The notes under the pieces were generated by a model that saw nothing but the letters and a program-made list of their open reading frames with translations, did no database searches and was not told where the DNA came from. A DNA stretch of 63,179 nt, counting the filler, from Malassezia furfur (Eukaryota), in NCBI GenBank assembly GCA_052055015.1. It is 6 parts of 6 records of this genome, joined end to end, with 100 filler letters (N's around TTAATTAATTAA, not from the genome) between each part and the next. Parts side by side here need not be neighbours in the genome. Positions count along the whole stretch, not along the records: positions 1 to 10,668 come from JBQJIT010000390.1; positions 10,769 to 21,279 come from JBQJIT010000391.1; positions 21,380 to 31,797 come from JBQJIT010000392.1; positions 31,898 to 42,273 come from JBQJIT010000393.1; positions 42,374 to 52,730 come from JBQJIT010000394.1; positions 52,831 to 63,179 come from JBQJIT010000395.1. One strand, 5' to 3'. This document shows positions 1 to 62,346 of this stretch, piece by piece; position 1 is the first letter of the stretch, and each line of letters starts with the position of its first letter. The translations under genes were made by a program, and so were the position numbers.

Positions 1-332
1 TGGTGCAGTACTTGATCGGGCGGTACGTGCACGCTTGACCCAGCATCGCAGACCCTGTATTTGGCGTTGCGACCGGTATTGCCGCGTACGCAATGTGGGA
101 GCGCGACCCGCGCAATGCCCACGATCATGGACCTGGAAACCGCCTGTGGGACCTCGTGCAGCGGCGCTTCCTGGGCGCCGAGACGCCCGCCGCGCCCGCC
201 GTGTCGCGCACGGCCACGCCCGCTGCGCCCGCTGCGGTCGTACAGGCCACCACGCCGACACCGGCACAAGTTGGGACGCATGCATTGCCGCCAGTGCCGC
301 CTGCTAACCAGTTGCCACGTCGTATCATTTGA
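1..332 (+). CDS. NCE101-family (non-classical export protein 1) small protein; A of the ATG lies just outside the window; intron 23-43 (21 nt)
   Basis: Splicing gtacgt..ttgac..cag removes an in-frame TGA and gives (M)VQYLIGRIADPVFGVATGIAAYAMWERD, which resembles the NCE101 motif YLIxxxxDPxF. Confidence 0.7.
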
Positions 333-352
333 ATCGTCACTATGTACATTCA

Positions 353-3028
353 TCACGTTCGCCTGCGCACCAACGAGGAGCACAGGTAGGCGATCGCGCC
401 CAGCAGCCGCACTGCGGCGAGAGCGGTCACAGAATAGAAAAGGAAACCCATGTACACACTGTGCACAGAGCGAGGCAGATTGACAATAGCCACGACCAGC
501 GCACCATTCGTCAACGTAAAGACCAGCACAACATTCGTGCGGACCATTGCGTAGTAGTCTTTTTGATACACTTCAGGGTCGCGCACCTCCGCCACCTTGG
601 GTGGACGTGTGGCGAGAACATGGCATGCGTCGTCGTACGCGGCGTCCATGTCCTGCGGCTGACTCGGCATCTCGACATCGACAGCGTCGGCCTGGGCCGT
701 GCTTGGTGCATTGCCGAGGTCATTGACGGTGTTCGATCCCTTAGTGCCCCAGGAAACATCGTGGGTGTTACAGAAGGCGTAGATGTTGATGATGTTGATC
801 ATGCTCGGCGTCAGTAGCATGTACTGTAAAATGCTCGTCACCATGTGCCACGGATCCAGGAAGAGCAGCCCCGCCAGAAGCCAGACACCATACGTGCTGA
901 GCACGGCAATAAACACACGCACAAACTGCGGGTCACTCATCACACCCAGACCATGATGGTCCTGCATCGCGTTCGTCACGCTGCTGTACATCAAGTAGCC
1001 CACCGAGACCATCATAATGAGCATCAGCAGGGCAAACACCACCATGCTCACGAGATAGCCGAACCGGTTCCCTGCAGGGCGATTGCCCATAGACAGTAGG
1101 TAGCAAAACAGCAGGAAGATCACATAGATGTATTGGCAAATTACCATGGGAATGTGTGCCCAGTGGTGCGAGTCGGCCAGCGCATTGGTCAGGATGCAGA
1201 AGGCAATAAAGTAGTTGGCCAGTGCAAACCAGGAAAAGAGCAGCTGGACGAGTTGGTAGAGCATCTCGACGTGTAGGGCTGCCTTGCGCATCGCCGAGTG
1301 GCTCGAGCGGTAGATGTAGCCAAACTTGATGATGGAATGGATCGCCGCAAAGAAGGAGCCGTTTAGCCAGCGTCGGCGCTGTGCAATAAACTCGGCGATG
1401 GTGTTGGGTACGTCTGTTTCGGCACGCGCACGCTTCACAAAGCGCAATAGCCACGCATTGCTGCGCTTTGTGACCAGTTCCCAGCACAAAATGCGGTCTT
1501 CAGCCAAGTACATGTTGCTCGTAAAAATGTCGGTGTTTTCGCTGCCGCCGTGCAGTGTCTCGCCCTTAAAGTAGGAGCACAGTGGCCCGTTGCCCATTTC
1601 GTCATTCTTCAGCGCCTCGTAGCGGTACGCACTGAATGCACCTGGCAGTACGGCAATGTAGCCAAAGGCACTCTCCATCGGCTTGTCCAGCACGTTGCTC
1701 ATTTTATACTCGAAGTTTTGTGCCGCAACCAACGGGTTGACCAGACCATGCCACATCTTGCCTTTCAGCGCCACAATCTCGCCACAGGCACCACCGACGT
1801 GTGGATCACGCTCAAACGCTCTCCAAAGGCGGTAGATGCTCTTGGAGCACGGACGAGTGCCCACGTCCAGCAATAAGTACACGTTCGGTTGGAGCACGGG
1901 TCCAAAGGCATTGAAGCACCAGCGGTGTGAGTTGATCTTCTTGCGGTTGTGTTCCTTGATGCACAGCACAATCTGCACCGGCACTATACCCCGCTCTTTG
2001 CTGCGGAACCGCATCATCCTGTCCACCGAGATCTGTGCAGTGTATTCGTACAGGTGCATCTCAACTGGCTGCCCACGCACCGAGTTCTTCGCAACGCCTT
2101 CCTGATACACGCCCATGGTCGCCAGTACGCTCAGTGTGCGGCTGCTCACCTTGTGCCGGCCGTCGGCGACGATGCACACGGTGATGTGCTTCCACCCGTC
2201 GGGGCCCCACACGCGTGAATTTTTCAGTTTGCACAGGTATGCAATGTTTTGCATCACGCCATGCATCGTACGTGTAAAGAGTGTCTCGTCCTCGTTGTAC
2301 ATGGTCAGCACAATGCATAGCTCCGTCTGTCGCGGCGGGTCGTACAGCGCTGGGCGCAGAGTAAACCCCTCGCGGACAAAGTCGTCGGCGTCGCACGTCA
2401 CGGCGGTGTACCGCATATGGGTAAACTCACGGCCCTCCTGAATGGGTAGCCGCTCGAGAAGTTTGGGTGCAATGGGGCATTCCACCACCAAGTGTCCCTC
2501 CTGCAGCCGCACGCGGCGCACAGTCTGCATGCGGCGGGGCTGGCGCTGGGGAATCCGTCCGTAGTGCACACGCATCACATCGTCAGGCAGTGACGCATAC
2601 GGCTCGGCCTCCTCGTGTTCCGTGTGCGAATCCGCCGAGCTATACTCATTCAAAAGACCCAGTAGCGCCTGGTTCGGGTCGTCTTCGGAATGCGCCGAGC
2701 TGATGGCATCCTTGGAACGCGTTTCGTACGGTACGAGGTAGGGCGAAGCGCCTCCCTCGATCCATGGTACACGCACCGGTTGTAGCTCCATGGCTTGCGC
2801 ATCGTGTAGATGTGCGCTGGGTCCGGCATCGAGCGCATCGTACGGGTTGTAGTGGGGGCTTGTCGTAGACTCATCATACGATGGAAGGTCCTGGAGCGGC
2901 TCGTCATCGACCTCATCGTAGGGATTGTCCAGCGCTCCGCTCACCCCCATGCCGAAGTGCGGCTCATACTGCACCTCGGGCGTGGGGACGGTTTGGCGTG
3001 TTGCCGAAAACAGCGGCCGTGCGGGCAT
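353..3028 (-). CDS. Chitin synthase (division I, class I/II type), intronless
   Basis: Motifs [46 protein letters not shown]; several C-terminal transmembrane helices. Confidence 0.97.
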
Positions 3029-3157: not shown

Positions 3158-6100
3158 ATGTCAAATCCCAGCTCGCTCTACGCGCAGAATGAGCGGGCCG
3201 TCGTCCGTGAACGGCGCGGGAGCGTCTTATCGCGTGGGCTTGTGCTCAAGGTCGACCAGCGTCCGATAGGTACGTTGCGTATCTGATGCAGCGCAAGAGC
3301 GGCGCGGCATCGACCGGTTGAACTTGCAAGGGGCGCCGTGTTTCCGTGCGGCCGAGGGGGGTCTGGGCGTGTACGGACTAGCCCAGCCGACCGTGTTCGG
3401 TATCAAGACAGTACTCACCTTCCTGCAGTGCCAGCCGGACGCGCGGGTCACGGGCGACGAGGCGATGCAGTGCATTTGGGTGTGCACCCGTGAGGAGCCG
3501 GTGATTTACGTGGGCGACCGCCCGCTGGTGTTGCGCGAGGCGCACAAGCCGAAAACGTCGCTGAGCCTGAGTGACCGCGCCGAGAACCTCGAGGCGATTG
3601 AGAAGCGGCTCAAGCTCGACATTCTGGCCGAGGCGCAAAAGTGCAACGGAATGCTGCTCGTGCATGAGGAGCAGGCGGGGAGCACGGAGTTGATCCCAAC
3701 GTGGGTGGCAGTGCAAAAGGACGACGTGCGTACGCTGCGTGAAGTCTGGAAGTGGATGCAGGACGACGGCTGGCGCGTGCAGTACCGCCGGCTGCCGATC
3801 GCACGCGACCAGCCACTAGAGCACAATTATTTGGACGCCTACACGCAGGTAATCAAGGGTGTCGATCCCCGCAAGACGTGTTTTGTGGCCAACTGTGGTG
3901 CAGGTGTGATGCGCACGACGTTTGCCATGATCGCCGCGGTGATTGTGCGTCGGCGACAGCTCATCCTGCGCACACGCGCGGATCCGTTTGACGAGGCACC
4001 GGCCATTCCCGGGTACAATGCCCACAAAGACGCGCTGATGCAGCGTGCGCCAAACAACGGCATTGCGCACTCGATGCGCCGGATGCAAGACAGCATGGCG
4101 CAGAACCAGTCGCTGTTGCGCCTCGTCAATGTGCTCACTGAATCGCTGTCGATGCGTGACACACGTGCGGCGATCGCCGAGCTGGTCGCGCAGCCTGTGT
4201 TGCTCGAGTCACTGCGCCAGGCCAACATGGGCGAGTACAACATCATTCTGCAGCTGTGTGGCCTGCTGGACCAGGGTCGGGAGTGCAAGTCCATCGTGGA
4301 CGTCGCCATCGACGCGTGCCAGGACATGATCAACATCCGCGAATCCATCCTGGAGAACCGGCTATACTACTCCACGGCGGCAATGGACGAGCACGAGGCA
4401 CAGGACCACTTGCGCCGTGCGGCCAAGTCGCTCGAGGTGTACTACTTTTTGATCGCCTTTGCAAGCTACGTGCAAGAGAGCCGCACGGCCGTGTTCGAGC
4501 ACAGCTTTGTCACCTGGCTCAAGCAGCGCGTCGAGATCTGGCGCGGGATCCAGCGAATCCGCACGCTGCACCGGCACCTGTCGCTGTTTGACCCGGTCGC
4601 GGACCTGTCGGTGATCAGCAAGAACGATGCAGGCCACCTCGCAGCACGCTCTGCGGCGGTCTCGGCGCGTTTTGACGAAGTCGCTGGGCAGGGAGCGCAG
4701 GTGACCGGTGACGAGTTCTCACACTTTGTCGTGCACAACCGCTCTGGCACCGTGCTGCACTCGGGCCTACTGCTCAAGCGCGATGTCTGGCGCGAGTTCC
4801 TCGAGGTAGACCCCGGCGCGGCGGTGCCTGGCGCAGTCAACTTCCGCCGCGTGCCCGAGACGAACGTGTTTGGCACGGGCCAGCCATCGGTGGATGGCAT
4901 CCACAAGCTGCTCGACTCGGTGCTGCAGCACATGCCCGCGCCGCACCACGGGCAGCCGCAGGTGGTGACGTGGATCAACTTGCGTGAAGAGCCGCTGGTA
5001 TACGTGAGCGGCAGGCCGTACTGCTTACGCCAGCGCGAGCTGTCGCTGCGCAATATGAAAAACTACAGCGGGATCACGCCCGAGCGCCTGCTGCTGCTCG
5101 AAGACCGGCTGCGCCAAGACGTGATTGCTGAGCTAGAACACAGCGAGGGCAAGCTGCTGCTGCACACCGAGACGGAGGACGGGACGGTGGTACCGACGTG
5201 GGAGGATGCTTCGCCGCAGGACGTCGAGACGGTGCAGGGTGTGATGGACGAGGTGGCCAATGCGCTCCCCGGCGACGTCCAGCTCGTTTTCCGCCGCGTG
5301 CCGATCACCGCAGAGAAGTCGCTCGAGCTGTCCGACGTGATGGACTTGCTGAGCACCGTACTCGACGTCTACGAGGAGTCGTCGCCGATCATTGTCAACT
5401 GCCAGCTAGGCCGTGGACGTACGACGCTCGTGTCGGTGTACATCCTGCTCATCGAACGCTGGATCCAGGCGGTGCGCCCTGGCAGCGACCGGTGCCTGCT
5501 ACTGCCTGTGCCCGGCGTGGCGCCCAACGGGGAGCATCCCTCTCAGCGCCTGTCCTACCACGTCACCAACAGCCTGCTGCGAGTCATCCCGCACGGCCAA
5601 GAGGTGAAGCGCGTCGTGGACGACTGCATCGATCAGTGCAGCACGGTGATCAACCTGCGGCGTACCATCGAAGATGCGCGTGTTGCGGCGCTGGACGCCG
5701 CGACCGACCAGGAGCGCGAGCAGCACATTACAAGCGGCACGCGCGGTTTGCGGCGCTACTTTCACCTACTGCTTTTCCAGGCGTATCTGGCGACGATCAA
5801 GCCCGAGACGATGCTTTCTAGCACGTTTGAACGGTTTGTTAAGCGCCAGCCCGTGCTGGCGACGATCGCCAAGGACCTCGACAAGGTGGACATTGCGACC
5901 ATTACGCCGCTGCGTAAGATGGACCTAAGCGACGGTATGGCACTCAGCGACGAGGTCGAGGAGGTCGTACAGAGCCGCAGTGGCAACATCCTTGGCGCAC
6001 AGACCATCCTAAAGTCCGACTTTTTCTCGGGCATCGTCAAGGCAGGTCTGCCGCTCCACGTCGAGGGCATGCCCAACCTGCGCGGTGTTAGCCCCCTGGT

Positions 6101-7382
6101 CCAGCCTGGTGCAGCGGCCGAGGCACACCCCGTGCACGAGCTGCCGACCGCGCGCGAGACGTGGGGGTGCGGCATGCCGACCGTCGAGGGCTTGCGCCGC
6201 GGTCTGACGCGCATGGGCGCCGGTCCTGGTGGCGCGGAGCGCACCGTGTGGACCAATTTGCGTGAGGAGCCCGTGCTGTATGTCAACGGACGCCCACACG
6301 TGCTGCGCCTCGCAGACCAGCCGCTGACCAACGTCGAGGCGACGGGCGTCACGACGGATGTGGTGGAGCGCATCGAGCGCTCGCTGAAGCGCGAACTGAT
6401 CGAGGAGGCTCACCAACGCGAGGGGCGCGTGCTTCTCCACGACGAGGTGCAGACGGAACGCGGTGACTTTGAGATCATTCCGATCTGGGAGACGGTGCGC
6501 GACGAAGATGTTCTCACCCCGCGCGAGGTGTACGAACTGGTGCAGCGCGAGGGTTTCCGCGTGGAGTATGCGCGCGTGGCGATCACCGACGAGCAGGCGC
6601 CCGTCCCGCAAGTCTTCTCCCAGATCGAGGACCGCGTTCAGCTCGCCATTGACACGCGTTCCATGACCGTGTTCAACTGCCAGATGGGCCGTGGGCGAAC
6701 GACAAGCGGCATGATCATCGCAGCGCTGATTGTGAGCATCAACCAATACGGTCACCAGCTGCTCGCCGACGACGCGCAGCACCGATTCTTCAGCGATACA
6801 CACGCAGATGGCGATGCGCATGCCGACAGCGAGGGACGCGTGCTGCGCGAAGAGGACATGCTGATGCAGGGTGAGTACCGGTGTATTTTGCAGCTTGTCG
6901 GCGTGTTGAGCAACGGCAAGCTCGCCAAGGCGCTCACAGACCGCGTGATTGACCGTATGGAGACCATCCAAAACCTGCGCAAGGCCATCTCGCTCATGAA
7001 GCTGCGCGCCGACAATGCCGAGCCGCACTCGCCACGGCAGCAGCAGCTGCGGCACGTGTACCACAACTACCTTGCGCGTTACGTACGTTTCCCCCGACTG
7101 ACCACGCAGGGTTATCTCATTGCCTTTGCCTCCTACCTTTTCGATCGGTTACAGGCGCAGCATGCGCCCGAGAACGACGAGGACAGTTTCTCGACGGGCG
7201 GCGCGCGCACGCCGTCCAAGCACGGCCGCTCCTTTTCGGGAGATGCCGACCTGTCGATGTCCATGTCGATGTCCATGTCGACGTCGGCGCTCACACCGGA
7301 CCGCAGCTATCCGTCCTTCCGCAAGTGGCTCGAGAAGCGCCGTGAGATCCGCGGTGTGCTGGAGCGCGCCGTGCTCGAGTAG
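3158..7382 (+). CDS. Paladin-like protein with three PTP-like phytase/inositol-phosphatase domains; introns 3270-3291 (22 nt) and 7083-7109 (27 nt)
   Basis: Three repeats of (NL/CT)REEPxxYV and CxxGxxRTT loops (CGAGVMRTT, CQLGRGRTT, CQMGRGRTT). The 22-nt intron joins MSNPSS...RGSVLSRGLVLK in frame to the long ORF. Confidence 0.9.
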
Positions 7383-7395
7383 TGCCTGTCGTAGG

Positions 7396-9523: not shown

Positions 9524-10503
9524 CTAGTCCTTCAGGTTGCCCAAGAAGTAAGCCACCGCATCGCACACTTTTTCCTGTGCTTCAGCGTCGTCCACCTTGT
9601 GGTTCGCATTGGGCACCAGCATCACACTGAGTGGGTCGTCGCGCAGCACACGGCTGTACCGTGCGATTTGCTTCACCTTGTCGATCGACGGCGGGACATA
9701 CTCACTGCGTCAGTCTCTCACACGCACTCTTTCTCGCCGATGAGCATCAACAGCGGCGCATGCGTCAGCGCGGGGTGCAGTGCCGCATAAATCTGCTCGT
9801 CCGTCAGGTCGTCGCTGAAAAAGTCATCGTCTCCACGAGCACCGTTCAAACTCTGGTAGCGATACGCCGTGAAGGCGGGCCGGAGCACCGCATCGGAATT
9901 CCCAGGGCCACGCCCGTCATGCGACGTGGGTTTTGCAGGGACCCCGTCGCGCGGAAGTAGTGCATCGCCGCGCTGCTCCGCGATCATCTTCTCGCTGAGC
10001 GCAAGCAGCTTTGCATCTTGCTCCGTCTTGTTTGCCTGGAAGTAGTCGTAGTCGGACGCGGGCGCCTGCAGGATGCCGCCGTCCACATGAATCTTGGGAT
10101 TTCCCCCGTTGCGTGACAGGCTGCGCTCCTGTGACAAGAGATGCACCACATCTTGACATCCGGTCGAATGGCCCATCACGACGAGGCGGCCCTTGCGCGG
10201 GTGCTGCGCGCGCGTTGTGAGATGCTCAATCAGTTGCGCCGTCTCCTGAGCATCTCCCTCAAGTGACGAAAGGCCAAAGCCGCCCATATCTGAGCCCTTG
10301 ATCGGCTGCACAAGCGAGTACTGCAGCTTGTTCAGCACCTCCGCCAGGCGGGGTAGATAGGGCACGACGCCGATCGTATCGGTCAGGCCGGCCAAAAAGA
10401 CAAACTTGTTGGGATGATGCGCATTCGTCTCAAAGTACGGCAACGGATGCGGGTCCGTCTGGTACAGCGACAGGGTGCCCTGCAATGGCGGGGGTGCGTG
10501 CAT
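9524..10503 (-). CDS. DUF1749 alpha/beta hydrolase; intron 9705-9727 (23 nt)
   Basis: GHSTGCQD nucleophile elbow, ILQAP, DDDFFSDD; splicing restores GEKDEYVP and a later ANH catalytic-His motif. Confidence 0.85.
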
Positions 10504-12899: not shown

Positions 12900-13433
12900 A
12901 TGGTGCTGCTAACGACGTCGGACAACGAGCACTTCACCGTCGACCGCGACGTCGCGGAGCGGTCGGTGCTCATCAAGCAGATGATCGAGGACATTGGCGA
13001 GACGGATCAGCCAATCCCGCTGCCGAACGTGTCGTCGAGCGTGCTGGCCAAGGTGCTTGAATACTGTAGCCACCACCGCAACGATCTGCCGACGACGAGC
13101 GATGACGCGGACGAAATGCGGCGTCGCGCGACGGACATCTCGGAATGGGATGCCAAGTTCATCCAGGTCGACCAGGAGATGCTGTTCGAGATCATCCTGG
13201 CGGCCAACTACCTCGATATCAAAAGCCTGCTCGATGTGGGCTGCAAGACGGTGTATGTACCGCGCGAAACTGACAAACAGTGCGAATATGATCAAGGGCA
13301 AGCAGCCCGAAGAAATCCGCAAGCTGTTCAATATCCACAACGACTTTACGCCGGAGGAGGAGGCGCAGATCCGCCGCGAAAACGTACGTTGTGCGCCCCA
13401 CGACTAATACAGGAATGGGCCGAGGACCGCTAG
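12900..13433 (+). CDS. SKP1: SCF subunit Skp1; introns 13253-13280 (28 nt) and 13384-13412 (29 nt)
   Basis: [17 protein letters not shown]; spliced product reads [22 protein letters not shown]...RRENEWAEDR. Confidence 0.97.
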
Positions 13434-19569: not shown

Positions 19570-20545
19570 TGCGCAAAGAGCTGCGTGGCCTCCTCCGGGC
19601 TCTGCACTACGTAGAATCCTTGAATGCCCAAGTCAAACTGGTACGCCGCATCGCGCTTGCTCCCGCGCTCCGCCGTGTCGCGCCGCAGCACACTCAGCGG
19701 CGACGCCGTGTCCTCCTTCGCAGGCGCCTCGCCCACGTCCTCGTCGGCGGGCAGCAGCGGCGGCTCGAGCAGCACGCTGATGCCAACGCTCAGCACCTTC
19801 TCGCGCAGCATCGACACCTGCGACTCGCTCACGACGCCGGTGTTGGTCAGCACAAAGTCGTCGAGCGGAATGGTGATGGTCTGCCACGCGTCGCCCTTGG
19901 CGTCGTCGAGGAACAGGCGGTGCTGGTACAGGTCCGTGTTCACCGGGCCGTCCGTCTGCACGTTGATGAAGAACAGCGGGCCGGCGGTGCGCGGCGCCGG
20001 CACACCGGGGTACGGCAGGCCGAGCGCATGCACCGCGCGCGGCACCGCGGGGCCGGACGGGTCGTGCGCGTGGAGCGCCGCGCGCAGCGACGGGCCGGAC
20101 GCCTGCGCGGGCTGCGGCAGGTTGTTCTTGACGCGCAGCAGCAGGTAGGGGTACATGCTCGTGTCCCACGACTCGTTGCCGAAGAGCGTCGGGCGCGACT
20201 TGTTGCGGAAGGCCGCGTACCCGCTGCGCTCGAGCGACGCATTGCGCGGGATCTGCGAGGAAACCGTTCCGTAGAAGCGCGCGTACCCCTTGCCCGCGGC
20301 GTCCTGCTCGAGAGCGACGTGGCACCGCGAGATGCCGCCAATATCAGTGTCGGAGCCGGTCGCGATCTGTGCGATCTGCTTGGCGTTGGTGAGCTCGTAC
20401 AGCGGCATCACGTCGCGCACCGTGTCGGATGCACTCACGTCCATGCGGAGAACTGCGATCAGCCAGGTAACGTACTCCGCGCCGTCTCGCGCTGCAGTCC
20501 GTGCACGGTGCGCCCAAACGCCTGGCGCCACGCTGCGAGGGCCAT
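19566..20545 (-). CDS. CIA30: Complex I assembly factor CIA30/NDUFAF1; intron 20453-20475 (23 nt)
   Basis: SDTDIGGIS, RSGYAAFRNK, DLYQHRL, FVLTN; the spliced 5' exon MALAAWRQAFGR looks like a presequence. Confidence 0.88.
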
Positions 20546-38399: not shown

Positions 38400-39164
38400 A
38401 TGAGCGGGGCTCAACCCGGCGGTGCGCCGCAGGTGTGCAACACGGCGAGCATTAAGGACACGAAGTACTTTTGCGATGATGCGATCGAGCGGGTAAGTAG
38501 CGCAATGCTCACGAAGTTCTTGACCCAACGGCCCAGCGCAGAACGGACCCCATCTGCCAAGGGCAAGGAGAAGTCGGCGGTCGAGTTTGCGCCGTTCCAG
38601 GCATCACACACGGTTGACGATGTGCTCATGGCGGTCAGTCTGACGGGATCAGTCATCATGCTCGGGACGGTCGGCTATGTGTACCTCAAAAAGGTGGAAT
38701 GGCCCATCGCGCGGCAGTACTACCTGGTCGCCGTGTCTACGTTTGCGGTGCTGTTTGCGATTCAGAGCGTGATCAAGTACTTTGCAGGGCCCCTTGTCTT
38801 CCGCGGCACGCGCAAGATGCTGTCGAACCGTGTATGTGCTCTGAGTGCTGATGCAGGTGGAAGTGGAATACCTTCGGATCCAGTCGCCTGCCCCTGGGGC
38901 GCCGAAAGTCTCGAACGAAAAGGCCGCCGATGGACGACCGATTCTGGTGCCGCCGGAGTATAAGCTTGAAGTGTGGTACACACGCAAGAGCAATGGCGGC
39001 AAGAGCGTCCTGGCAACAAAGCATGATCACATCGTCCTCGGTCACTTTGGTACGTGCTGCTTGGCGCTGACACAGGCGAGTGGTTCACCGAAAAGGGCGA
39101 GTTTGTAGAGTCGGTGTTCGAGCAGCGGCTGCTCACGAGCCTGCAGCGCGTTCTAGGTGAATAG
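38400..39164 (+). CDS. SPC2: Signal peptidase complex subunit Spc2 (SPC25); introns 38493-38516 (24 nt), 38832-38856 (25 nt) and 39050-39075 (26 nt)
   Basis: K..CDDAI, two TM helices, spliced C-terminal FGEWFTEKGEF. Confidence 0.8.
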
Positions 39165-39265: not shown

Positions 39266-39691
39266 ATGCGCACCAATGATCTGACAGCGGAGCGCAACTG
39301 GCACCTGGGAAGCAAGCATGTGGGGATTGTCCATGTGTGCAAGTGTACCTGTTTCACAACAAACACAACTCTGATTCCGCTCTACGTGCCCACGCCGCAA
39401 GGCGACTTATGCAGCGCGTGCACCAAGCAATTCTGTCTCGAGCGTGCTGAGGGATGTCATGGCGCCCAGATCGCCGAGGTCAACGATGATACAGCAACCG
39501 GTTATGAGGGCCAGGTGTGGGCGAAGTGCTTTAGTATGTGGTAGGCTAACACAGTACGCGACCCCACAAAAGACCAATCGATCGTGCTCTTCTACCTGAT
39601 TGCTGTACTGGCTCTTCTTTTCTGGATATTCGTGCGGAGCCGGACAGGACAGGTATTATGGGCCCGCCTACGCGCTGCGCTACGTTTGTAA
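39266..39691 (+). CDS. Conserved fungal Cys-rich single-pass membrane protein of unknown function; intron 39534-39554 (21 nt)
   Basis: CKCTCF..NTTLIPL..CSACTKQFC..C..KCFIRDPTKDQSIV followed by a TM; splicing removes an in-frame TAG. Confidence 0.7.
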
Positions 39692-39973: not shown

Positions 39974-40691
39974 ATGGAAGCCAAGTTGCAGTCGCTTAAG
40001 GTGCCGGAACTCAAGGAGTTGCTCACGAAGGCATCGTTGCCTGTTACTGGTAACAAGCCCGACCTGATCAAGCGGCTGCTTGAGAACCCTTCGGCGACGT
40101 CGTCGTTGGGGGACGCCGAGGCGTCTGCCCCAGAGACCGAGGCGAAGCCTGCCGCGTCGACGGAGCCCGCCGCGCCTGCCAGCGAGACGCAGGCGCCATC
40201 TGCTGCGCCTGAGGCGACCGACGCACCTGCTCCGCAAGCGCCGGACGCTGCGGAGTCGCCGGACCAGGAGGCACGCAAGCGCATGCATCTAGCCGAGCTG
40301 GAGAAGCGCAAGGCGCGTGCGATCCGCTTTGGACAGCCTACGGAAGAACTCGAGAAGGAGATTGCGCGTGTGACCAAGTTTGGTCTGCCGGAGGGTGAGG
40401 CAGATGCCACGCAAAAGATTGACCACGGTCTGCGCACCGGCAAGCGTGCCCAGCCGGCGGCTCAGCCGGGCCCGACGAAGCAGGCCAAGACCGAGACCAA
40501 GGCTCCTGCGGTGCCGGCGGTATCAGTAGGTGACGTTGCTTACGTGCAGGAGGAAGAGCTGGAGCGGAGAAAGCGCCGTGCCGAGCGCTTTGGGCTGGTC
40601 AATCCTGCCGAGGAGGAAAAGAAGCGCCAGCGCGCGGAGCGATTCAACGTGCGTAGCCGCGAGTCTGACGCAGGCGCCCAAGGCAGCGTAA
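39974..40691 (+). CDS. SAP-domain RNA-binding protein Tho1/SARNP-like; introns 40526-40549 (24 nt) and 40649-40673 (25 nt)
   Basis: SAP domain LKVPELKELL..LPVTGNKPDLIKRL; repeated RAxRFG motifs. Confidence 0.85.
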
Positions 40692-43983: not shown

Positions 43984-45782
43984 ATGGAAGACGACGAGCA
44001 GTTGTATCCCATCGCGATCTTAATCGACGAGCTGAAGTCTGAGGATGTGACGCTACGTCTCAACTCGATCCACCGTATCTCGACCATTGCGCTCGCGCTC
44101 GGCCCCGAGCGTGCGCGCGACGAGCTGATCCCCTTCCTCCACGAGTCGCTCGACGACGAGGACGAGGTGCTGCTCGCGCTCGCCGAGGAACTCGACGCGA
44201 ACTTTGCGGAATACTTGGGCGGGAACCAGTATGCACATCTGCTGCTCGGCCCGCTCGAAAACCTGGCGACCGTCGAGGAGACCGTCGTGCGCGAAAAGGT
44301 ACGTTGCCGCCGCCCCACTGACCCACGCAGGCGTGCGAGTCGATCAACAAGATCGCCAAGGTGCTGAGCGAGCAGCAGGTTCAGGAATACTACCTTCCCC
44401 TGCTCAAGCGCCTTTCGAACGGCGACTGGTTCACGTCGCGCACAAGCGCCGCCTCGCTCTTCGCCTCGGTGTACGACCGCGTGCCGGCGACGATGCGCGC
44501 CGAACTGCTCGGCATGTTTGCGATGCTGTGCCACGACGACACGCCCATGGTGCGCCGCGCCGTCGCGCGCGACATGAGTGCGCTCGTGAAGCAGATGCCC
44601 AAGGAGCTGGTTGTCTCCGATATCCTCCCGCTATACCGCCGCCTGTCGACCGACGAGCAGGACTCGGTGCGCCTGCTTACCGTGCAGGACCTCGTGGCGA
44701 TCGCCGAGGTGCTTGATAAGAACGAGATGCAGCAGCTCCTCCTCAACTCGATTCGCGCCGCCTTCCAGGACAAGAGCTGGCGCGTGCGCTACATGGCGGC
44801 GGACCACTTTGTGAAGCTGGCCTCAGCCGTGAACGAAAAGGTGGTTCAAGAAGACCTCGTGCCCGCCTACGTCAACCTCATGCGCGACGCCGAGGCCGAG
44901 GTGCGCACGGCCGCCGCGAGCCAGACGCCGGGCCTCGCCAAGTTGATGGACCAGCAGACCATTTTGGACCACCTGATGCCGGTCGCCAAGGAGCTCGCCG
45001 ACGACCCCTCGCAGCACGTGCGTGGTGCGCTCGCGGCGCAGATCAGCGCACTCGCGCCGCTCCTCGGCAAGGACGCCACGATCGAGCACCTTTTGCCACT
45101 CTTCCTGCAGCTGCTCAAGGACGAGTTCCCAGACGTGCGCCTGAACATCATCTCGCGCCTCGAGCAGGTGAACGAGGTAATCGGCATCGATCTCCTGTCT
45201 CAGTCGCTACTCCCGGCCATCATGGAGCTTGCCGAGGACAAGCAGTGGCGTGTGCGCCAGGCGATCATTGAAAACATCCCGCTGTTGGCGCTGCAGCTCG
45301 GCGTGCAGTTCTTCAACGAACAGCTGAGTAGCCTGTGCATGAGTTGGCTCGGTGACACGGTCTTCTCTATCCGCGAGGCTGCTACGATTAACCTGAAAAA
45401 GCTCACCGAGGTGTTCGGCGTGGAATGGGCGCGCACCACCATCATCCCCAAGGTGTTGCAGATGAGCACGCACCCCAACTACCTCTATCGGATGACGACC
45501 ATCTTTGCGGTAACCACCATGGCACCGTCGTTGGATACAGACACGATCCTCAACAGCGTGCTGACGACCATGCTTCCCATGGTACAGGACTCGGTGCCCA
45601 ACATCCGCTTCAACGTCGCCAAGGCCTTTGAGGTGCTCTCGACCGAGCTCAGCAAGACGCCCGAGGGCCGGCGCGCCATCCAAGACAAGATCAACCCGGC
45701 CCTGCAGGTCCTCAGCGAGGACCGGGATGCAGACGTGCGCTACTATGCCACGCACGCCCTGCAGACCACCGCGAATGTGTAG
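43984..45782 (+). CDS. TPD3: PP2A scaffold subunit A; intron 44299-44330 (32 nt)
   Basis: [46 protein letters not shown] repeats. Confidence 0.97.
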
Positions 45783-45869: not shown

Positions 45870-46818
45870 ATGTCGTTTCTGTTTAAAGGTGCCGCGAAAG
45901 ACAAGGTCGCAAAGACCGACGAGCCCAAGGCTCCGCGCACCACCGCCGTGATCTTCACGCCCCTGCCCGATGAGAAGCCCGCACCCCCGCCTGCCCTCCA
46001 TCCGGGTGACGAAGAGAAACTTCGCGAGCTCGAGCAGCACGTCGCCGAGTACCGCCAGGCACACCCATGCGAGCCGGCGTACGCAAAATACGAAGAGGCA
46101 TGGCTTCAGGACAACAATGTCTACAAGCGCTACTTGCGTGCCACGCGTGGCGATCTGCGATCGTCCAAGCGCCGCATCATCGTACGTATCGCCCTTCTTC
46201 GCACACCTTCTTACACAGGATACACTGCAATGGCGCCGCGAGTTCAAACCGGAAATTATCCCGCCCGATGAAGTGGCCCCGGAGGCGACTACGGGCAAGC
46301 ATGTCCTCAACGCATTCGACCGTCAGGGCCGCCCGATCCTCTATCTCCGCCCGGGTCGCGAAAACACCAAGACAAGCCCACGCCAAATTCGCTACCTCGT
46401 ATGGAGTCTCGAGCGCGGGATCAACTTGATGCCACCAGGTCAGGAGACGCTCACGATCGTCGTCGATTTCCACGGCGCGAGCCTGTCCACCACGCCGTCG
46501 CTCTCTACCGCGCGGCACGTCGCGCACATTTTGCAAAATCACTACGTGGAGCGTCTGGGCCGTGCGTTTGTGTGCCACACGCCGAGATTCATCACGGCCT
46601 TCTTTACGGCGCTTTCGCCCTTCCTGGATCCGGTCACCAAGGACAAGATTCGGTTCAACTACCCCGACATGACCGAATTCATTCGCCCCGATCAGCTCGA
46701 CGACCAATTCCCAGGCGGAACGTATCCGTACGAGTTTGACTTTAACGTGTACTGGCCCGCACTCATCGAAGCCTGCGGCATCCAGCCGGATGGCACACGT
46801 GTAGTGCGTCGTTCGTAG
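45870..46818 (+). CDS. CRAL-TRIO/Sec14-like lipid transfer protein (Pdr16/Sfh3 family); intron 46182-46218 (37 nt)
   Basis: RYLRAT, TLQWRRE, GRPILYLRPGRENT, LQNHYVERLG, DPVTKDKI. Confidence 0.9.
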
Positions 46819-47959: not shown

Positions 47960-50716
<2,757 letters not shown>

Positions 50717-53080: not shown

Positions 53081-53432
53081 TCAGACCCATTTGGGCTTGG
53101 CAGAATCCTGTAGTTTGGCGAGCTGTTGTCAGAGTGCGGCTCGCCCACCTCTTCATGCTCCTGCTTCATCGTTTTGATAAACTCGGCTTCTGTTTGCACA
53201 CGTCGCTTGGCGTCTACCTGCCGCTTCAGATCCGGCGGCAGGTTCTGAAGGCGTCAGCACCTTGCGCTAGGTTCGCAGACTCACATCGTACATCTCCTTC
53301 TCATTTGGGACCGTATCTGGCGTCAGCATGCTCATCTCGGTCGGACGTACACTTTAGCAATGCAACGCCAATCCCAATGATCACCGCAGAGCCCGTAAAT
53401 GCGCGGGCCCAGTTGCGCGCACCCCCCGGCAT
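53081..53432 (-). CDS. CBP4: Complex III assembly factor Cbp4-like (about 83 aa), absent from the ORF track; introns 53317-53350, 53245-53284 and 53123-53148
   Basis: Spliced product MPGGARNWARAFTGSAVIIGIGVALLKYTVPNEKEMYDNLPPDLKRQVD...DSAKPKWV* has the Cbp4 pattern (TM-KYTxP-E-L-P-L...PxW). Confidence 0.8.
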
Positions 53433-53706: not shown

Positions 53707-54697
53707 ATGTCTACAGTGTACAGTGCTGCGCTGAAGCGCGACGTGGCTTCGAACAAAAAGCGCGGTGCAGAGGACGCCGAGGATGATTCGCAAAAGATCC
53801 GTCGGAATAAACAGCGCGTGCTTGTGCTTCCCTCGCGCGGCGTCACGACACGGATGCGTCACCTCGTGAACGACCTTGAAGCGCTGCTCCCCCATTCCAA
53901 GAAAGGTATGCCGCACACCTCACACCAGACTCCAAACTCGACTCAAAGTCGGACCTGTCGATCCTGAATGAGTTGGCTGAGCTGAACAACTGCAATGTAC
54001 GTTTTCATGGCTCACACAGAATTGTATGTACTTTGAGTGCCGGCGGCACGAAGATCTCTACCTGTGGCTCTCCAAGACGCCCAATGGTCCCTCTGCGAAG
54101 CTGCAGATCCAAAACATTCACACAATGGACGAGCTGAAGATGACCGGTAACTGCCTCAAGGGGTCTCGGCACATTTTGAGCTTCGACGCTGGCTTCGACG
54201 CGGAGCCGCACTGGAAGCTCATGAAGGAGCTTCTCACGCAAATGTTTGCCGTGCCACGCACTGCGCGCCGTGCCAAGCCTTTTGTCGACCATGTGTTGAC
54301 GTTCAGCATTCTGGACAACAAGGTGTGGTTCCGCAACTTCCAGATCATCGAAAAGGATCCCGGAGCGACCGCCGCTGCCGAGGCTGCTGCCAGTGCGGAG
54401 GGCAGCACCGAGAAGCCTAAGCGTACCGCCAAGGGCGCTCCCGTTGAGCCCACGCTGGTCGAGATCGGGCCGCGGATGGTCATGACGCCGATTAAGATTT
54501 TTGAGGGCAGCTTTGGCGGCCCGACGCTGTTCGACAACCCTGAATACATCACGCCTGCGGCGATCCGGCGTGCGACGCGCCAGGAGAAGGGCACTGCGTA
54601 TACCAACCGCGTGCTCCAGGCGCAGAGTTTCCGTGCCAAGAAAGATCGGTACAAGGGCGAGGAGAGCGAGCTCAGCCGCTCCAAGGTATTCTCGTAG
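53707..54697 (+). CDS. BRX1: Ribosome biogenesis protein Brx1; introns 53906-53928 and 53997-54019 (both 23 nt)
   Basis: Spliced HSKKDSKLD and CNNCMYFECR; HTMDELKMTGNCLKGSR, EIGPR. Confidence 0.96.
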
Positions 54698-55341: not shown

Positions 55342-55808
55342 ATGGATCTTCGTAGGTGACGCCCCACTGACCAGTGCCCGCTGGACTGCTGCCCAAGTGG
55401 CTCCTCATCGTCGGCGCTGTGGCCACGCTGAACGGACTACAGAACATCGCGAAGCCCTCGTTTAGCACTAAGGTGTATTCCTCGTCGACCGGCCAGGCAC
55501 AAGTGACGCCACTATCGGCGCGCCTCTTTGCGGTGTGGAACTTGACGTCGGCGATGATCCGTATTTACGCCGCGTACAACATCCAGGATCGGAGGTAAGT
55601 TGGCCGCCGCTAATCCAGTGCCTATCTCATGTGCTTAGGCACATTCATCATTGCCTTTGTGCACTTCACCTCGGAGTTCGTCCACTACGGCACGCTCGCT
55701 GCGGTGCCCGGGTCCATGAGCCCGATGATCGTGGCCAGTACGTGCGGCGCTTACCTAGGCTCGTCTATGATTGCCATGCTTGCGCAGTTTACATACTATG
55801 TAGGTTAG
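55342..55808 (+). CDS. ERG28: Ergosterol biosynthesis scaffold Erg28; introns 55352-55374 (23 nt), 55595-55618 (24 nt) and 55738-55758 (21 nt)
   Basis: LPKWLL, VTPLSARLFAVWNLTSAMIRIYAAY, HFTSE, SPMIVAS. Confidence 0.92.
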
Positions 55809-56959: not shown

Positions 56960-58823
56960 CTAACCACGTGGCCCATCTGGTGACCACAGGTCGGCAAGTC
57001 CTGGGAACGCCTCGTCGTCCATCTCAAAGCGCGGGGGATGCAGTGGCTCGGGTGCCGGACGGCGCCGCACCGGCGTCGGCGTAGTGGGGGGCGTGGCGCG
57101 TTTTTTGGATGAATGCTCCCACGATGTCTTGCGTCCCCGCAGCGCCCGTACCGCGGCATGGTCGTCGTCCACGGGCGCAATTTGGATGCGCTTGTCGGAG
57201 CCCAGCGCGCCCGTGAGCAATCCCGTGCGTGGATTCTCACGGATACGAAGGTTGTCGAGCCGCACGAGCTGGCCAGCTCGCAGCTGTACGGCGAGCGGTG
57301 CATGGGAGCCCCATAGGCCGACTTGCAGCACACTGCCGCCCTTGTCCCCCGGCGGCTGCACCGAGAGGTGTTTGTTGTTCCCATCGTAGATGTGTTTGTG
57401 CAGGGTATAATCCGTGACGTAGAGGTCGGGTGGATTTGACTGCGAGAACACCTTGACGATCTCCACAACCGTGTCGACAAAGGTATGCGGCTGCAGCTTG
57501 TCGAGTGTCTGCAGCGCGCGTGCACTCGGCTGCTGCGGAGTTGGCGCCTTGTCGAGGTGTGCCAGGAGCTGCAGAGCGGCCGTGCGCTCTGCGTCACCAA
57601 AGTCGCTTGCGCTCGCGTTCGCGGCATACCGCCAGGTTTGTGTCGTTGCGTTCCACGCAGCCCACTGGAACGGCACTTTGCGACTGCCCACGCCCTGCGT
57701 GCGTCCGTTGAAGAGGCCGATCTGCACGCCACGGAGCAGCACTGCGTCCTTTTCACTCACGGCGCCGGGCAGTGCCTGCTCGTCCTGCGCAAAGAGGTTG
57801 GAAGAGAGTGTAGAGCGCGCATCGTCGGCGCCGCTGCCGTCGGTGATGGCGACTTTGACCATCACGTCGCGGAGTCGTTGCATGGGTAGGCGCACACTCG
57901 CATCGGTCACGGCGACGCCCATCACATTGGCAACCATGTCTTTGCGTAGCGCAGCAATCGGGGTATACAAGTGCCCATTCAATGTCCGCTCCGCCGCGGG
58001 TGCCGGCGGCGGCAGGCTGGTGGGCGCCGAGGGTATCAAGGCAGGCGCCGCAGTAGGCATCTGCGGCGTAAACGCAAGCGCGGGCGCCTGCGCCGGCGTC
58101 ACCGACCGCACGTCGGGCGTACGTAGCCACGCGTCTGAGCCGGGCGAGCCGATGTCCATTGGCGTCGGCAGCATGACCTGCGTGACGGGCGCGTCCTTGT
58201 TGCATTCAAACCACACCGCGTAGCTCGTGGGATCGCGCAAGGGCACCTCGGCGTCGGCATCCGCATCGGTCGCGATGTACGCCTTGAGTGCGATGCGGCC
58301 CTGGGCGTAGACGACGCGTGTGCGCGGGGCTTCGGTGGTGCCGAACTTCTGTGCCTCGGCACCAAAGCCCGAGAGGAATACGGGTACATCTTCTTCGCGA
58401 TGCCGCACGAGCAGTGCGTGCAATGCACCGGCGTTGCGGCCGACAAAAACGAGGGGAACGTGCGCGACGTCGTCGGCGCGCGGCGCTTCCAGAACACACT
58501 GCGTCAGAAGGAGCACCTACGCCAAACGTAGGAGGCACACCGATTGGGGTACTGAGCCGTCCGATGCACCCCGCGACACACACGGTCGCGCCGCGACCCT
58601 GGGCGACCGTTTCCATCCACGCGTCGATCGCGACGCATTCCCCGAGCATGGGCTTCTCACTCGCGTCGTAGTGTAGATGGGGCGCGTCGGGGTGGGCGAG
58701 GCCTGCGGCATGGATTGCAAAGTTGAGCGGGCGCCGCGCGACGGGGTACGCGTACGACGACGCCTCGCGCGGCACGTTGTCGCTGTCCGACGCGCGACGC
58801 GTCTTGCGCCGCTGCCGGCCCAT
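56960..58823 (-). CDS. POT1: Pot1-like telomeric ssDNA-binding OB-fold protein; intron 58499-58520 (22 nt)
   Basis: OB1-like NVMGV..D.MVKVAITD..NLF..LP..DAVLLRGVQI; OB2-like FVDTVVEIVKVF..LYVTDYT..LQVGLW..VRLDNLRI. Confidence 0.75.
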
Positions 58824-58855
58824 GGCGGTCCTCCACACACGATGCGGCAGGCGCA

Positions 58856-60470
58856 ATGTACGTCGGAAGAAGCTCACCCGCAGTGTCGTTTGCCGCCGCC
58901 AGCGAGCGCCCACGCCGGCGGATCAAGGTGCGCTCGCGGCGCCCCCCGCCCGAAGCCCCCAAGTTGGCACGCATCTACGCGGACGCGCTGCCGGCGCCCA
59001 ACGTCTTGGCGCGCGTCTATTTGTACGAATGGCTGGTGCGTTTTGAAAACGTCGAGGCGCTCGGCTGGCCCGCACAGCGCATCGACGCCGTACACTGTTG
59101 GGACAACTTCTTCGTGCAGCAGGTACTGCAGCGCATTGCCGTGCACCTCGCGGGTCTCACGGAGCTCGGAAGCGGACAGCCTGCCGCCGGTTTCGGCCGG
59201 CTCATCCGCGCGCTGCGCCGGCACGCGCAGGATGCTGAGGCACCTGCGCCGTGGAACGCAGCGCACGCGCTGCTGGAGCACGCAGAAGTACCCTCGTGCG
59301 TACTCGAGGAGGTGGACGTCGCTCTGCCGCTCTGGCGCCGGCCGAGCAAGCGAGCGCCGGAGCCGGAGCCGCTGCCGTCGCGGCGCACGCGGAGCATGAC
59401 GCGCCTCGTCGATGCGGTCGCATCACTGGACGACGACGAAATGGATGTGGATACCCCGTCGGAAGGTACACGCTGCTCGCGGCGCGCCGAGCAGCTCGCC
59501 GCGAAGAAACGCAGCGAAGATCTTCGGCAGCGCGCCGAGCGTGTTCTGGGCCCCAGTGTATCGCACGAAGACGAGGCAGAGGAGGAGGAAGAGGAGGGCG
59601 AGCCCATACACCTCGAAACGAAAGTTGCATGCCTCGTGCGCCTGTGCGACCTACTGTCCACGCCGCGCGGCACCCCTGCGTCAAGTGGTCTACACCGGCT
59701 GGTGCAACCGCTCCTCGACGGGCTGCCGACCGTCGAAAAGGAGATGCGCGAGCATGTCGCACATGTGCAGTCCGAGTGCGATGCGGCGATGAAGGCGCTG
59801 CAGAAGCGTGCGCCGTCGATGGTGTCACAACGCTACGACGCGTGGCAAGAAGAGGTAGGTTACCCGACTCACGCAGCGCAAGGCGCTCCAAGCTGCGAAC
59901 GAGCATGCCGTACAGGGCGCCCAGGCCGAGCAGTACCTTGCGCTCCGGCGTCACGCGCCCCGGGGGGGTGCGCTCGGCCGCGACCTAGACGGCAACGAGT
60001 ACTGGCATCTATGCCCCATCGTGCCACCGCACCATGAATGGGATGTGAGCGTGGCGGGTGCAACGCCGCACTTTTCGGGGCACTGGTCGCAGGTGCTGGT
60101 CATCTATGGTCGTTCGCCTGGCGGCGAGCTACGGGAGAGTGAGGGCGAGGCCAGCGGCGAGGCCAGCGGCGAAGGGAGCAGTGAAGCGCCGGCGCTACCC
60201 GCCGAAACAGGGCCTAAGGCAGGTGGAGACACCGAGGGGCGCGGCGCCGACGCAACCACCGCTGCCCCCCATACCGCCCCCGAGCCGGCGCCACACGGTT
60301 TCTACGGCACGGCCGATGCCACGGCGATCCGTGCGTTGCGTACCTACCTGCATCACCGCATGGAGCGCGCTGACCTGTCGGACGAGGCAGCTGCGGCGCA
60401 GTCGACGCTGCTGGCGAACCTGGCGCAGGTGCAAACGTACATGGCTTGGGCGGCGGCCGAGCTTGCCTAG
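58856..60470 (+). CDS. Putative chromatin protein with a WHIM/WSD-like motif; intron 59855-59876 (22 nt)
   Basis: Splicing joins two ORFs and gives LGRDLDGNEYWHL, resembling the WSD motif; function uncertain. Confidence 0.6.
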
Positions 60471-60485
60471 CTATCTATAGCACAT

Positions 60486-62346
60486 CTACTCGGGGCGATT
60501 CGCCGGGAAAGCCAGCACCTCCTTGATCGTGTGCGAGTCGGTGAGGAACATGACCAGGCGGTCAATGCCGAGACCCCAGCCACCGGTGGGCGGCAGGCCG
60601 TGCTCGAGCGCGTCGAGGAAGACGTGATCGACACCCTGGGCCTCGTCGTCACCCGCGTCCTTCTGGCGGCTCTGCTCCTCGAAGTTTTCGCGCTGGATCC
60701 AGGGGTCGTTCAACTCGGTGTAGGCGTTGGCGATCTCCTTGGTGGCGACGAACGCCTCGAAGCGCTCGCACAGGCCGGGAATCTCGCGGTGACGCTTGGC
60801 GAGCGGCGACATGATCTGCGGGTGGCCGACGATGAACGACGGGTTGATGCACTGCGACTCAATGAACTCGCCGACGAGCTTGTCGATCAGGCGGTTCGCG
60901 GTGCGCGGCGCACTGCACTCGACGTTGTGCTTCTCGCAGAGGTCCGAGAGCCACTTGCGCGACTCCTCGGTGTGCAGTTGGTCGCCCGGCGGGAAGGTGA
61001 CGTTGAGCTGCTTCTCAAGCTCCTTGATCATGTCGAAGCGCTTCCACGGCGTGGTGAAGTCGATCTCGTACTCGCGGCCGTTCGGGTCGTCCTTGCCGTC
61101 GGGGTGGTACTTGATCTTGTACGAGCCCGTGACGGCCTTGACGAGACCCGAGATCATGCTCTCGGTGATGTCCATCAGGTCGTACATGTCGGCGTACGCC
61201 ATATAGAACTCACACGTGGTGAACTCCGGGTTGTGCGTCTGGTCGATCGACTCGTTGCGGAACACACGGCCGATCTCGTAGACACGGTCGAGGCCGCCCA
61301 CCACGAGCTCCTTGAGGTAGAGCTCGGGCGCAATGCGCATAAACAGGTCGAGCTTCAGGTCGTTGTGGTGCGTGACGAACGGCTTGGCGCTCGCACCACC
61401 CGCGATCTGGTTCATCATGGGCGTCTCCACCTCGAGGAATCCGAGCTGGTCCAGGAAGCGGCGCACATACTGGATCGTCTTGGCGCGCTTCACAAAGATG
61501 TCGCGCACGTGGGGGTTCATAATCAGGTCGAGGTACCGCTTGCGGTAGCGCTGCTCCTGGTCGGTAAATCCACCGCGCTCGTTCACCGCGGCCTTCGGCA
61601 GCATCTTGAGGTTTGGCGAGAGCAGCTTGATCGAGCGCGGCACGATCGACAGCTCGCCCTTCTTGGTCTTGGCCGGGAAACCGGTGACGCCGACCACATC
61701 GCCGCGGCGCAGCAGGTCGTGCGCGGCAAGGAAGTCGCCGTCCGTGTGGTCCTGCAGCTGTGCCATGATCTGCACCTTGACGCCCTCGCCGTGCAGGTCG
61801 TAGAAGCGCAGCTTCTGACCCGAGGCGCGCATGTTGTGCAGGCGGCCGGCGAGGCTCACCTCGTCGGGCAGCTGCGCGCCGGCCTCGAGCTTGTCGGCAT
61901 ACTTGGCGATGAAGTCGGTCAGACTCAGCGTCACATTAAACTTGTGCGGATAGGGGTCCGGGTTGCGCGTCTCGCGCAGCTTCTGGATGGCGCGCGAGCG
62001 CATCTCGTAGTACTGGTTGGGCGTAAGCGCATCCTCGGCAGCGAGGTCGTTGCCTGCCTTCTTGGCGGCCGGCGGCGCATTCTTGGCCTTCTCGGCCTTT
62101 TCGGCTTCCTTTTGGCGCTGCTTCTGGCGGCGCTTGAGTTCGCTGCGTGAGCGGCTTCTTCGCGACGTACCTCTTGCTCACCATCTCTCCCGTCACGGGG
62201 TCCGGCAGCAGGTTGGGGGCATCCCCAGCGGCAGCGGGTGCTTCAGTCATCGTAAGTCTCTGAAAATAACGCGCGGGCAACACAGAAGCTCGTCGGGTCG
62301 TGGGTCGCAGCACTTGTCGAGAAAGCCGTCCGACACCGAGGAGCAT
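60486..62346 (-). CDS. KRS1: Class II lysyl-tRNA synthetase; intron 62143-62170 (28 nt); two in-frame ATGs (62346 and 62250)
   Basis: [52 protein letters not shown]. Confidence 0.97.

Follow-up and report, generated by a model that had tools for sequence, protein, structure and literature searches.

Short introns are an already known property of the yeast genus Malassezia, recorded in published annotations. According to the accessible parts of the papers concerned, the curated annotation of M. sympodialis holds 5350 introns with a mean of 30 base pairs (bp), 99% of them supported by RNA sequencing (RNA-seq), the aligners having been set to 10–2000 bp (PMC5389616); the introns of M. restricta have a mean of 37.2 bp and a median of 30 bp (PMC9241646), and the minimum intron length in gene prediction was set there to 20 and then to 15 (PMC9241646; PMC6473144), while a review speaks of 'very short introns' in Malassezia genes (PMC7426719). 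In the accessible part of a paper of 2026 that deals with the shortest introns of animals, ciliates, microsporidia and dicyemids are given as the exceptions below 30 bp, and Malassezia goes unmentioned (PMC13644364). A literature search, with subscription journals outside its coverage, found no paper analysing Malassezia splice-signal spacing or a length minimum. Here we describe a stretch of 63,179 bases from Malassezia furfur (hereafter the window) that carries 37 candidate introns of 21 to 105 nucleotides (nt), which are very probably ordinary U2-type GT-AG spliceosomal introns of an M. furfur-like yeast, reduced to little beyond their signals.

All results are based on sequence, homology and comparison across relatives. 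The flanking exons of each candidate were searched separately against Pfam and the profile coordinates were compared across each junction, with matches to chain sequences of the PDB and alignments of spliced models with orthologues serving as further junction checks. Genes were predicted with a small dynamic-programming gene finder that had nine long open reading frames (ORFs) of the window as its training set and allowed introns of 18–200 nt with no length prior; an initial run, in which introns were weakly penalised, merged adjacent genes by way of long, weak introns and was set aside. For comparison, one metagenome scan with the BRX1 alignment yielded five 20.6-kilobase (kb) contig stretches (L001–L005) that share synteny with the window's last piece across eight genes and have a guanine-plus-cytosine (GC) content of 66% (L001), 53% (L002) and 59–60% (L003–L005); self-trained gene finding on them was noisy, most of all in L002 and L003, and was used only where protein alignment agreed. 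The window itself, at 64.5% GC, is a composite of six pieces of ~10.6 kb, which need not be neighbours in the genome and in which the genes at piece ends are truncated. Its joints lie at 10669-10768, 21280-21379, 31798-31897, 42274-42373 and 52731-52830, each made up of a 12-base string that holds stops in all frames, flanked on either side by 44 N. Over its main exon, BRX1 shares 98% identity with the GenBank BRX1 of Malassezia furfur, 73-85% with those of M. yamatoensis, M. psittaci, M. japonica, M. cuniculi, M. nana and one unnamed Malassezia species, and ~65% with Ustilaginales proteins; by this measure the lineage is Malassezia, and M. furfur-like, which agrees with an earlier sequence-only reading that had assigned the DNA to a basidiomycete yeast of this genus.

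The curated candidates comprise 15 of 21–23 nt, 14 of 24–30 nt and 8 of 32–105 nt, with a median of 25 nt, a mean of 29.5 nt, a minimum of 21 nt and a commonest length of 23 nt (n = 37). They were graded into class A (strong support, 17 candidates), class B (moderate support, 9) and class C (splice consensus and reading frame, 11), i.e. restoration of a conserved frame upon removal is supported for 26 of the 37, strongly for 17 of these, and the other 11 rest on consensus and frame. Every candidate begins with GT and ends with AG, and so do all 15 segments of 21–23 nt which the sequence-only reading had listed; each of these was found with the length and strand expected (10 plus, 5 minus), a GTRNGT-like donor, a CTSAC/CTRAY motif and a YAG acceptor. 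The accompanying claim that their removal restores conserved frames stood for ten by homology or Pfam (class A) and for two in class B (23-43 and 33805), and for the remaining three (3270, 20453 and 32747) it comes down to consensus and frame. The predicted number of about 36 introns is close to both the 35 of the gene finder and the 37 of the curated list, which reads as follows.

23..43, plus strand: 21-nt intron in an NCE101-like gene whose start is off the window (class B)
3270..3291, plus strand: 22-nt intron in a paladin-like phosphatase gene, after an ATG exon at 3158-3269 (class C)
7083..7109, plus strand: 27-nt candidate in the paladin-like phosphatase gene, with perfect consensus, a stop-free multiple of three that could be coding (class C)
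9705..9727, minus strand: 23-nt intron in a DUF1749 hydrolase gene (class A)
13253..13280, plus strand: 28-nt intron in SKP1; Skp1 profile position 12 is the first residue of the downstream exon (class A)
13384..13412, plus strand: 29-nt intron in SKP1 (class A)
20453..20475, minus strand: 23-nt intron in a CIA30-like gene, after a 23-codon first exon (class C)
22587..22611, minus strand: 25-nt intron in an AMP-binding enzyme gene (class A)
24562..24588, plus strand: 27-nt intron in a DJ-1 family gene, a stop-free multiple of three (class B)
32136..32157, plus strand: 22-nt intron in a syntaxin gene (class A)
32747..32769, plus strand: 23-nt intron at the syntaxin C-terminus, with perfect consensus (class C)
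33528..33550, minus strand: 23-nt intron in a lactonase (7-bladed propeller) gene (class A)
33805..33826, minus strand: 22-nt intron in the lactonase gene, after an 11-codon first exon; same junction as in the M. brasiliensis model (class B)
36395..36422, minus strand: 28-nt intron in an MTD1-like dehydrogenase gene, linking the exons of the THF_DHG_CYH N-domain and C-domain (class B)
38083..38122, minus strand: 40-nt candidate in the 5' region of an RRM protein gene, from the gene finder only (class C)
38171..38216, minus strand: 46-nt candidate in the same 5' region, from the gene finder only (class C)
38271..38318, minus strand: 48-nt candidate in the same 5' region, from the gene finder only (class C)
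38832..38856, plus strand: 25-nt intron in the signal peptidase gene SPC25/SPC2; SPC25 profile 18-92 upstream (class B)
39050..39075, plus strand: 26-nt intron in SPC25/SPC2; SPC25 profile 137-158 from residue 1 of the last exon (class B)
39534..39554, plus strand: 21-nt intron in the gene of a small Cys-rich membrane protein, with an in-frame stop if retained (class A)
40649..40673, plus strand: 25-nt candidate near the THO1 C-terminus, by consensus only (class C)
44299..44330, plus strand: 32-nt intron in the gene of PP2A scaffold subunit A, the exons corresponding to residues 5-106 and 107-583 of 1b3u_A (class A)
46182..46218, plus strand: 37-nt intron in a SEC14-like gene, with CRAL_TRIO_N up to the exon end and CRAL_TRIO in the next exon (class B)
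48625..48729, minus strand: 105-nt intron in ARG5,6 (class A)
50549..50578, minus strand: 30-nt candidate at the ARG5,6 N-terminus, by consensus and frame, with an in-frame stop if retained (class C)
53123..53148, minus strand: 26-nt candidate third intron of a small gene, by motif only (class C)
53245..53284, minus strand: 40-nt intron in the small gene, with in-frame insertions or stops in relatives at the junction (class B)
53317..53350, minus strand: 34-nt intron in the small gene, on the same kind of evidence as 53245..53284 (class B)
53906..53928, plus strand: 23-nt intron in BRX1 (class A)
53997..54019, plus strand: 23-nt intron in BRX1; Brix profile position 55 at residue 1 downstream (class A)
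55352..55374, plus strand: 23-nt intron in ERG28, preceded by a first exon with 10 coding nt; once spliced, the N-terminus agrees with orthologues and, from the Met onwards, with the intronless copy in L003 (class A)
55595..55618, plus strand: 24-nt intron in ERG28; Erg28 profile passes from 65 to 69 (class A)
55738..55758, plus strand: 21-nt intron in ERG28, a stop-free multiple of three; L003 gapless (class A)
58499..58520, minus strand: 22-nt intron in a POT1-like gene; the spliced frame crosses the junction in continuous frames of L001-L003 (class A)
58858..58883, plus strand: 26-nt candidate at the 5' end of an unnamed gene, from the gene finder only, with no support in relatives (class C)
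59855..59876, plus strand: 22-nt intron in the unnamed gene; L002 and L003 gapless, L001 with a 22-nt intron at the same place (class A)
62143..62170, minus strand: 28-nt intron in a class II aminoacyl-tRNA synthetase gene; gapless at the junction in continuous frames of L001, L002 and L003 (class A)

In BRX1, Brix positions 1-25 lie upstream, the middle exon encodes 22 residues and the profile continues at 55; with both introns removed, the middle exon is identical to that of M. yamatoensis and nearly so in Moesziomyces. ERG28 with its three introns removed matches the orthologues, and none of the 16 aligned holds the 7 residues that keeping 55738..55758 would add. At the DUF1749 junction, Pfam position 237 falls on residue 257 of 258 upstream and 240 on residue 1 downstream; in the syntaxin gene, the upstream exon holds Syntaxin_2 positions 1-27 and 13 further residues, and the profile is picked up downstream with position 41 on residue 2; and the AMP-binding profile breaks off at 325, where the exon ends, and continues from 339 on residue 10 of the following exon. 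The 34-residue penultimate exon of SKP1 corresponds to residues 124-157 of 163 in human SKP1 and 155-188 of 194 in yeast, and 13384..13412 is supported because 6 chain residues remain and the last exon encodes 6. The spliced lactonase has its conserved strand at 33528..33550 without a gap against 10 of 11 homologues, and across its 21-nt intron, at which ORF-only records end, the spliced Cys-rich membrane protein agrees with its annotated orthologues in M. japonica and M. psittaci. Longer introns exist beside the short ones, as the 105-nt intron of ARG5,6 demonstrates, with Semialdhyde_dh position 111 of 121 at the exon end and the C-domain beginning at residue 18 of the next exon.

Among the class B and C candidates, retention of 23..43 would give an in-frame TGA, and Pfam NCE101 positions 7-43 begin at residue 2 past the acceptor. 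The DJ-1 profile passes from 128 to 133 across its junction, and the unspliced frame carries a 7-residue insertion relative to human DJ-1. The middle exon of SPC25/SPC2, searched alone against Pfam, gave no match. No in-frame ATG occurs in 3270-3465 of the paladin-like phosphatase gene, although its coding potential starts at 3348; an intronless start downstream of 20453-20475 is possible for the CIA30-like gene; and 32747..32769 lies beyond a homology test because the spliced and unspliced syntaxins differ in their last 3–5 residues only. In the MTD1-like gene, GTGCGT and GTGCGC stand as in-frame candidate donors 6 nt apart before one acceptor, giving introns of 28 nt or 22 nt (36395-36416), and alternative 5' splice site use altering two codons may occur here. 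For the first intron of the lactonase gene, a 37-nt alternative to 33805 was rejected, as it would delete residues kept by homologues. The lactonase gene (32803-33861, minus strand) has, among its best 120 homologues, named matches that are bacterial (Streptomyces, Kribbella, Nocardia and others, 32-42% identity) apart from a few Malassezia entries, with no other named fungus among these 120; it may have been acquired from bacteria and now contains 22- and 23-nt introns, which, if so, would imply intron gain after the transfer.

GTACGT is the donor of 17 of the 37, GTGCGT and GTAGGT of 5 each, with others making up the rest; GTRNGT fits 34 of the 37, and GTTCGT, GTAAGG, GTGGGC and GTATGC are named as exceptions. 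A YTNAY-type branch motif occurs in all 37 (CTGAC in 16, CTCAC in 8, CTAAC in 4, others in 9), with the candidate branch A 4-11 nt before the intron end, and the acceptor is CAG in 35 and TAG in 2. In the 34 introns of ≤40 nt, no pyrimidine tract was found, the putative branch A never stands before position 16, and the intron ends 5 nt after it in 19 (range 4-9); these two spacings together account for the 21-nt minimum in the sample. Within the 21–23 nt class the putative A is at position 16-18 with one exception, position 19 in 55352-55374, close to the distance from 5' site to branch A of about 15–18 nt which had been proposed beforehand. A typical intron would begin with a donor of 6 nt, in most cases GTACGT, GTGCGT or GTAGGT, continue with ~5-10 nt of spacer and CTSAC/CTRAY, and close with YAG, usually 5 nt past the A; it would be removed by a conventional spliceosome with its full-length BRR2. 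We infer that the introns are in fact excised, that the proposed branch A is used and that each intron is recognised whole, as one unit (intron definition).

The same positions were followed into the syntenic relatives, a comparison that the sequence-only reading had suggested, and on the related Malassezia-like contigs they were found with introns of 22–25 nt, with introns of 42–64 nt, or with none. The BRX1 pair measures 23 + 23 nt in the window, 24 + 25 nt in L001 and 42 + 64 nt in L002, and is absent from L003-L005, the intronless call being made by an unbroken match in L003-L004 and by direct frame search in L005, where the best score came without an intron. In L003 and L004, BRX1, ERG28, the POT1-like gene, the unnamed gene and the tRNA synthetase gene each appear as one unbroken match. 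The junction peptides of 55595, 55738, 59855 and 62143 run through the relatives' continuous frames and show no gap at the junction; at 55595..55618, L002 and L003 are gapless and the intron that L001 has in this place measures 23 nt; and the 22-nt version at 58499 fits the relatives, with small gaps only away from the junction. At the point of 53245..53284, insertions of 14 codons in L002 (with a stop) and of 9 codons in L003 point to an intron at the same position. Introns of 22-27 nt also occur in a relative of 59-60% GC. To judge from these alignments, intron loss and intron length vary by lineage inside the genus.

Two further observations were made on these contigs. The small gene of ~110 codons at 53035-53432 (minus strand) has three introns whose positions are conserved in L001-L003 at ~9100-9460, with lengths of 34, 40 and possibly 26 nt in the window, 26, 25 and 23 nt in L001, and 27, 27 and 26 nt in L003. 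L002 bears, within 11719-11886, a 10-codon in-frame insertion at the place of the window's 21-nt ERG28 intron, probably a 30-nt intron that went unrecognised.

Public gene models appear to fail at such introns, as had been anticipated for predictors with larger minimum sizes, and three proteins look wrong. The GenBank BRX1 of M. furfur (P0002) has ~28 residues that diverge from all orthologues exactly between the two 23-nt introns, and reads the second of these as coding, with its frame shifted over the middle exon; that frame has two stops in the window (53686-54697). The M. brasiliensis lactonase (P0121) is without 10 conserved residues at the 23-nt intron, and M. globosa MGL_1707 (P0399, 88 amino acids) terminates at the position of the 21-nt intron; many unnamed ORF-style database entries likewise end at these introns. 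On these alignments, all three models appear to be mistaken at short introns.

One spliceosome gene, the sole one in the 63-kb window, bears on the machinery.

25054..31506, minus strand: BRR2, the helicase of the U5 small nuclear ribonucleoprotein, intronless, 2150 amino acids

All Brr2 Pfam domains are present, and residues 10-2132 align with 10-2123 of human Brr2 (2136 amino acids), so that Brr2 is full length from end to end and looks conventional, just as the sequence-only reading had described it. Neither small nuclear RNAs nor other RNA families were found when the window and three relatives (125 kb) were scanned with Rfam. The suggestion of the sequence-only reading that U1 and U2 binding is crowded on introns this short is conjecture and does not stand.

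Controls against chance were run on the window. With a loose pattern, 39 segments of 20-29 nt were matched where 50 Markov shuffles gave 13.0 ± 4.1, and longer bins showed no enrichment; a stricter score with one match per donor gave 31 matches of ≤30 nt against 7.6 ± 3.0 (maximum 17, 100 shuffles), i.e. such matches are ~4 times commoner than in shuffles. Inside strongly coding gene spans, 41 motif matches lie on the sense and 5 on the antisense strand, and for those of ≤30 nt the ratio is 24 to 1. The gene finder returned 37 models with 35 introns, 22 of them of 21-30 nt and none below 21 nt although 18-20 nt was allowed. Six introns that it had missed were added to the curated list (23-43, 33528, 33805, 39534, 53123 and 58499-58520). 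Calls at 7856-8055 (200 nt) and 8081-8120 (40 nt) were dropped as being without support, and so was 60331-60390 (60 nt); 40649-40686 (38 nt) was dropped because it fuses THO1 with BCD1, its 25-nt variant being kept in class C, and 58499-58583 (85 nt), which would delete 19-26 residues kept in L001-L003, was replaced by the 22-nt version. Nine of the 37 candidates are multiples of three, six with an in-frame stop and three stop-free (55738-55758, 24562-24588 and 7083-7109), a small sample to set against the Paramecium-type depletion of stop-free introns of this kind; retention of the stop-free three would add 7-9 in-frame residues and not truncate the protein.

Several points weigh against reading the whole set as short spliceosomal introns. 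Genome-wide statements extrapolate from 63 kb of sequence evidence, the motif score and the gene finder were tuned on the same window to which they were applied, 11 of the 37 candidates are of class C, the shuffles predict several chance matches, two of the three stop-free multiples of three (7083 and 24562) could be coding, and some donor choices, such as 36395-36416 versus 36395-36422, are ambiguous. Pressed to its end, this would mean that many of the listed segments are chance GT..AG matches or coding sequence and that the true set is smaller and longer, for which the shuffle background, the 11 candidates without homology support, the stop-free 7083-7109 and 24562-24588, and the rejection of at least five gene-finder calls can all be cited; set against the 24:1 sense bias, the independent support of 26 of the 37, and the verified members of even the shortest class (55738 and 39534 at 21 nt; 32136, 58499 and 59855 at 22 nt), it strikes us as very improbable. 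That the frames are broken by errors of assembly or sequencing, by lesions of pseudogenes or by programmed frameshifting is hardly credible at all: a complete donor, branch motif and acceptor stand on the coding strand at every break, other species carry introns of other lengths at the same positions, and several of the introns are multiples of three and hence not frameshifts. The signals, the strand bias, the restored frames and the positions kept or lost in relatives are direct observations, and ordinary GT-AG introns reduced to little beyond their signals account for them best.

If the introns are real, the M. furfur lineage might still differ from its published siblings, with a 22–23 nt mode, a hard 21-nt limit and an adapted early spliceosome assembly. 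Consistent with this are the commonest length of 23 nt and the minimum of 21 nt where 18-20 nt was allowed, the BRX1 introns of 23/23 nt here as compared with 24/25 nt in the 66% GC relative and 42/64 nt in the 53% GC relative, and the silence on Malassezia in the accessible part of the account of exceptions below 30 bp (PMC13644364); we nevertheless think it unlikely, as the mean of 29.5 nt in the window is equal to that published for M. sympodialis, 30 bp (accessible text of PMC5389616), a 59-60% GC relative also has 22-27 nt introns, and BRR2 is unchanged. A related proposal, which we offer tentatively and with some doubt, is that Malassezia is an overlooked one among the few eukaryotes with introns below 30 nt, its high-GC M. 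furfur lineage being the clearest case, and has a hard 21-nt limit, set by at least 15 nt from the 5' G to the branch A together with a fused branch-acceptor CTSAC-N-CAG, and an apparently conventional spliceosome. Were it true, the sharing of 21 nt by U1, U2 and the 3' site factors would become directly testable in a cultivable, transformable yeast.

For the preferred reading of ordinary, signal-only introns, novelty is low because short introns are known for the genus. The novelty implied by the sequence-only reading is therefore weak; it had itself conceded that the feature would be real but not novel if sibling species were already documented with the same short mode, and this largely applies because their published mean or median of 30 bp matches 29.5. 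The value of the finding is mainly practical, in that gene models of the genus fail where 21-25 nt introns are missed, and the conceptual interest, which lies in a cultivable yeast with full-size BRR2, a 21-nt minimum and fixed signal spacing, is modest.

Microsporidia have very few introns and a reduced spliceosome, and ciliates have thousands of uniform introns; unlike both, the window comes from a free-growing yeast with a full-length BRR2 and a tail of 32-105 nt introns in the same genes. What it has in common with microsporidia (Encephalitozoon) and ciliates (Paramecium), as described in the accessible parts of the sources, is a length of 20-30 nt, little beyond splice signals and no pyrimidine tract (PMC13644364, PMC5014332). 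Nearest are M. sympodialis and M. restricta, which belong to the same genus and, by the accessible text of their annotations, have a mean or median of 30 bp against a window mean of 29.5 and median of 25, with GT-AG junctions supported by RNA-seq and a minimum intron length set to 10-20 nt; they differ in being other species, for which the accessible text gives no mode, lower limit or signal spacing, whereas the window is M. furfur-like at 64.5% GC. Myxozoans and dicyemids resemble the window in their median intron of 22-27 bp, but are animals in which, according to the accessible part of the same animal study, the branch signal consists of weakly conserved A residues (PMC13644364); in the window, by contrast, CTSAC/CTRAY is a strong motif, placed at a constant distance of 5 nt from the 3' end.

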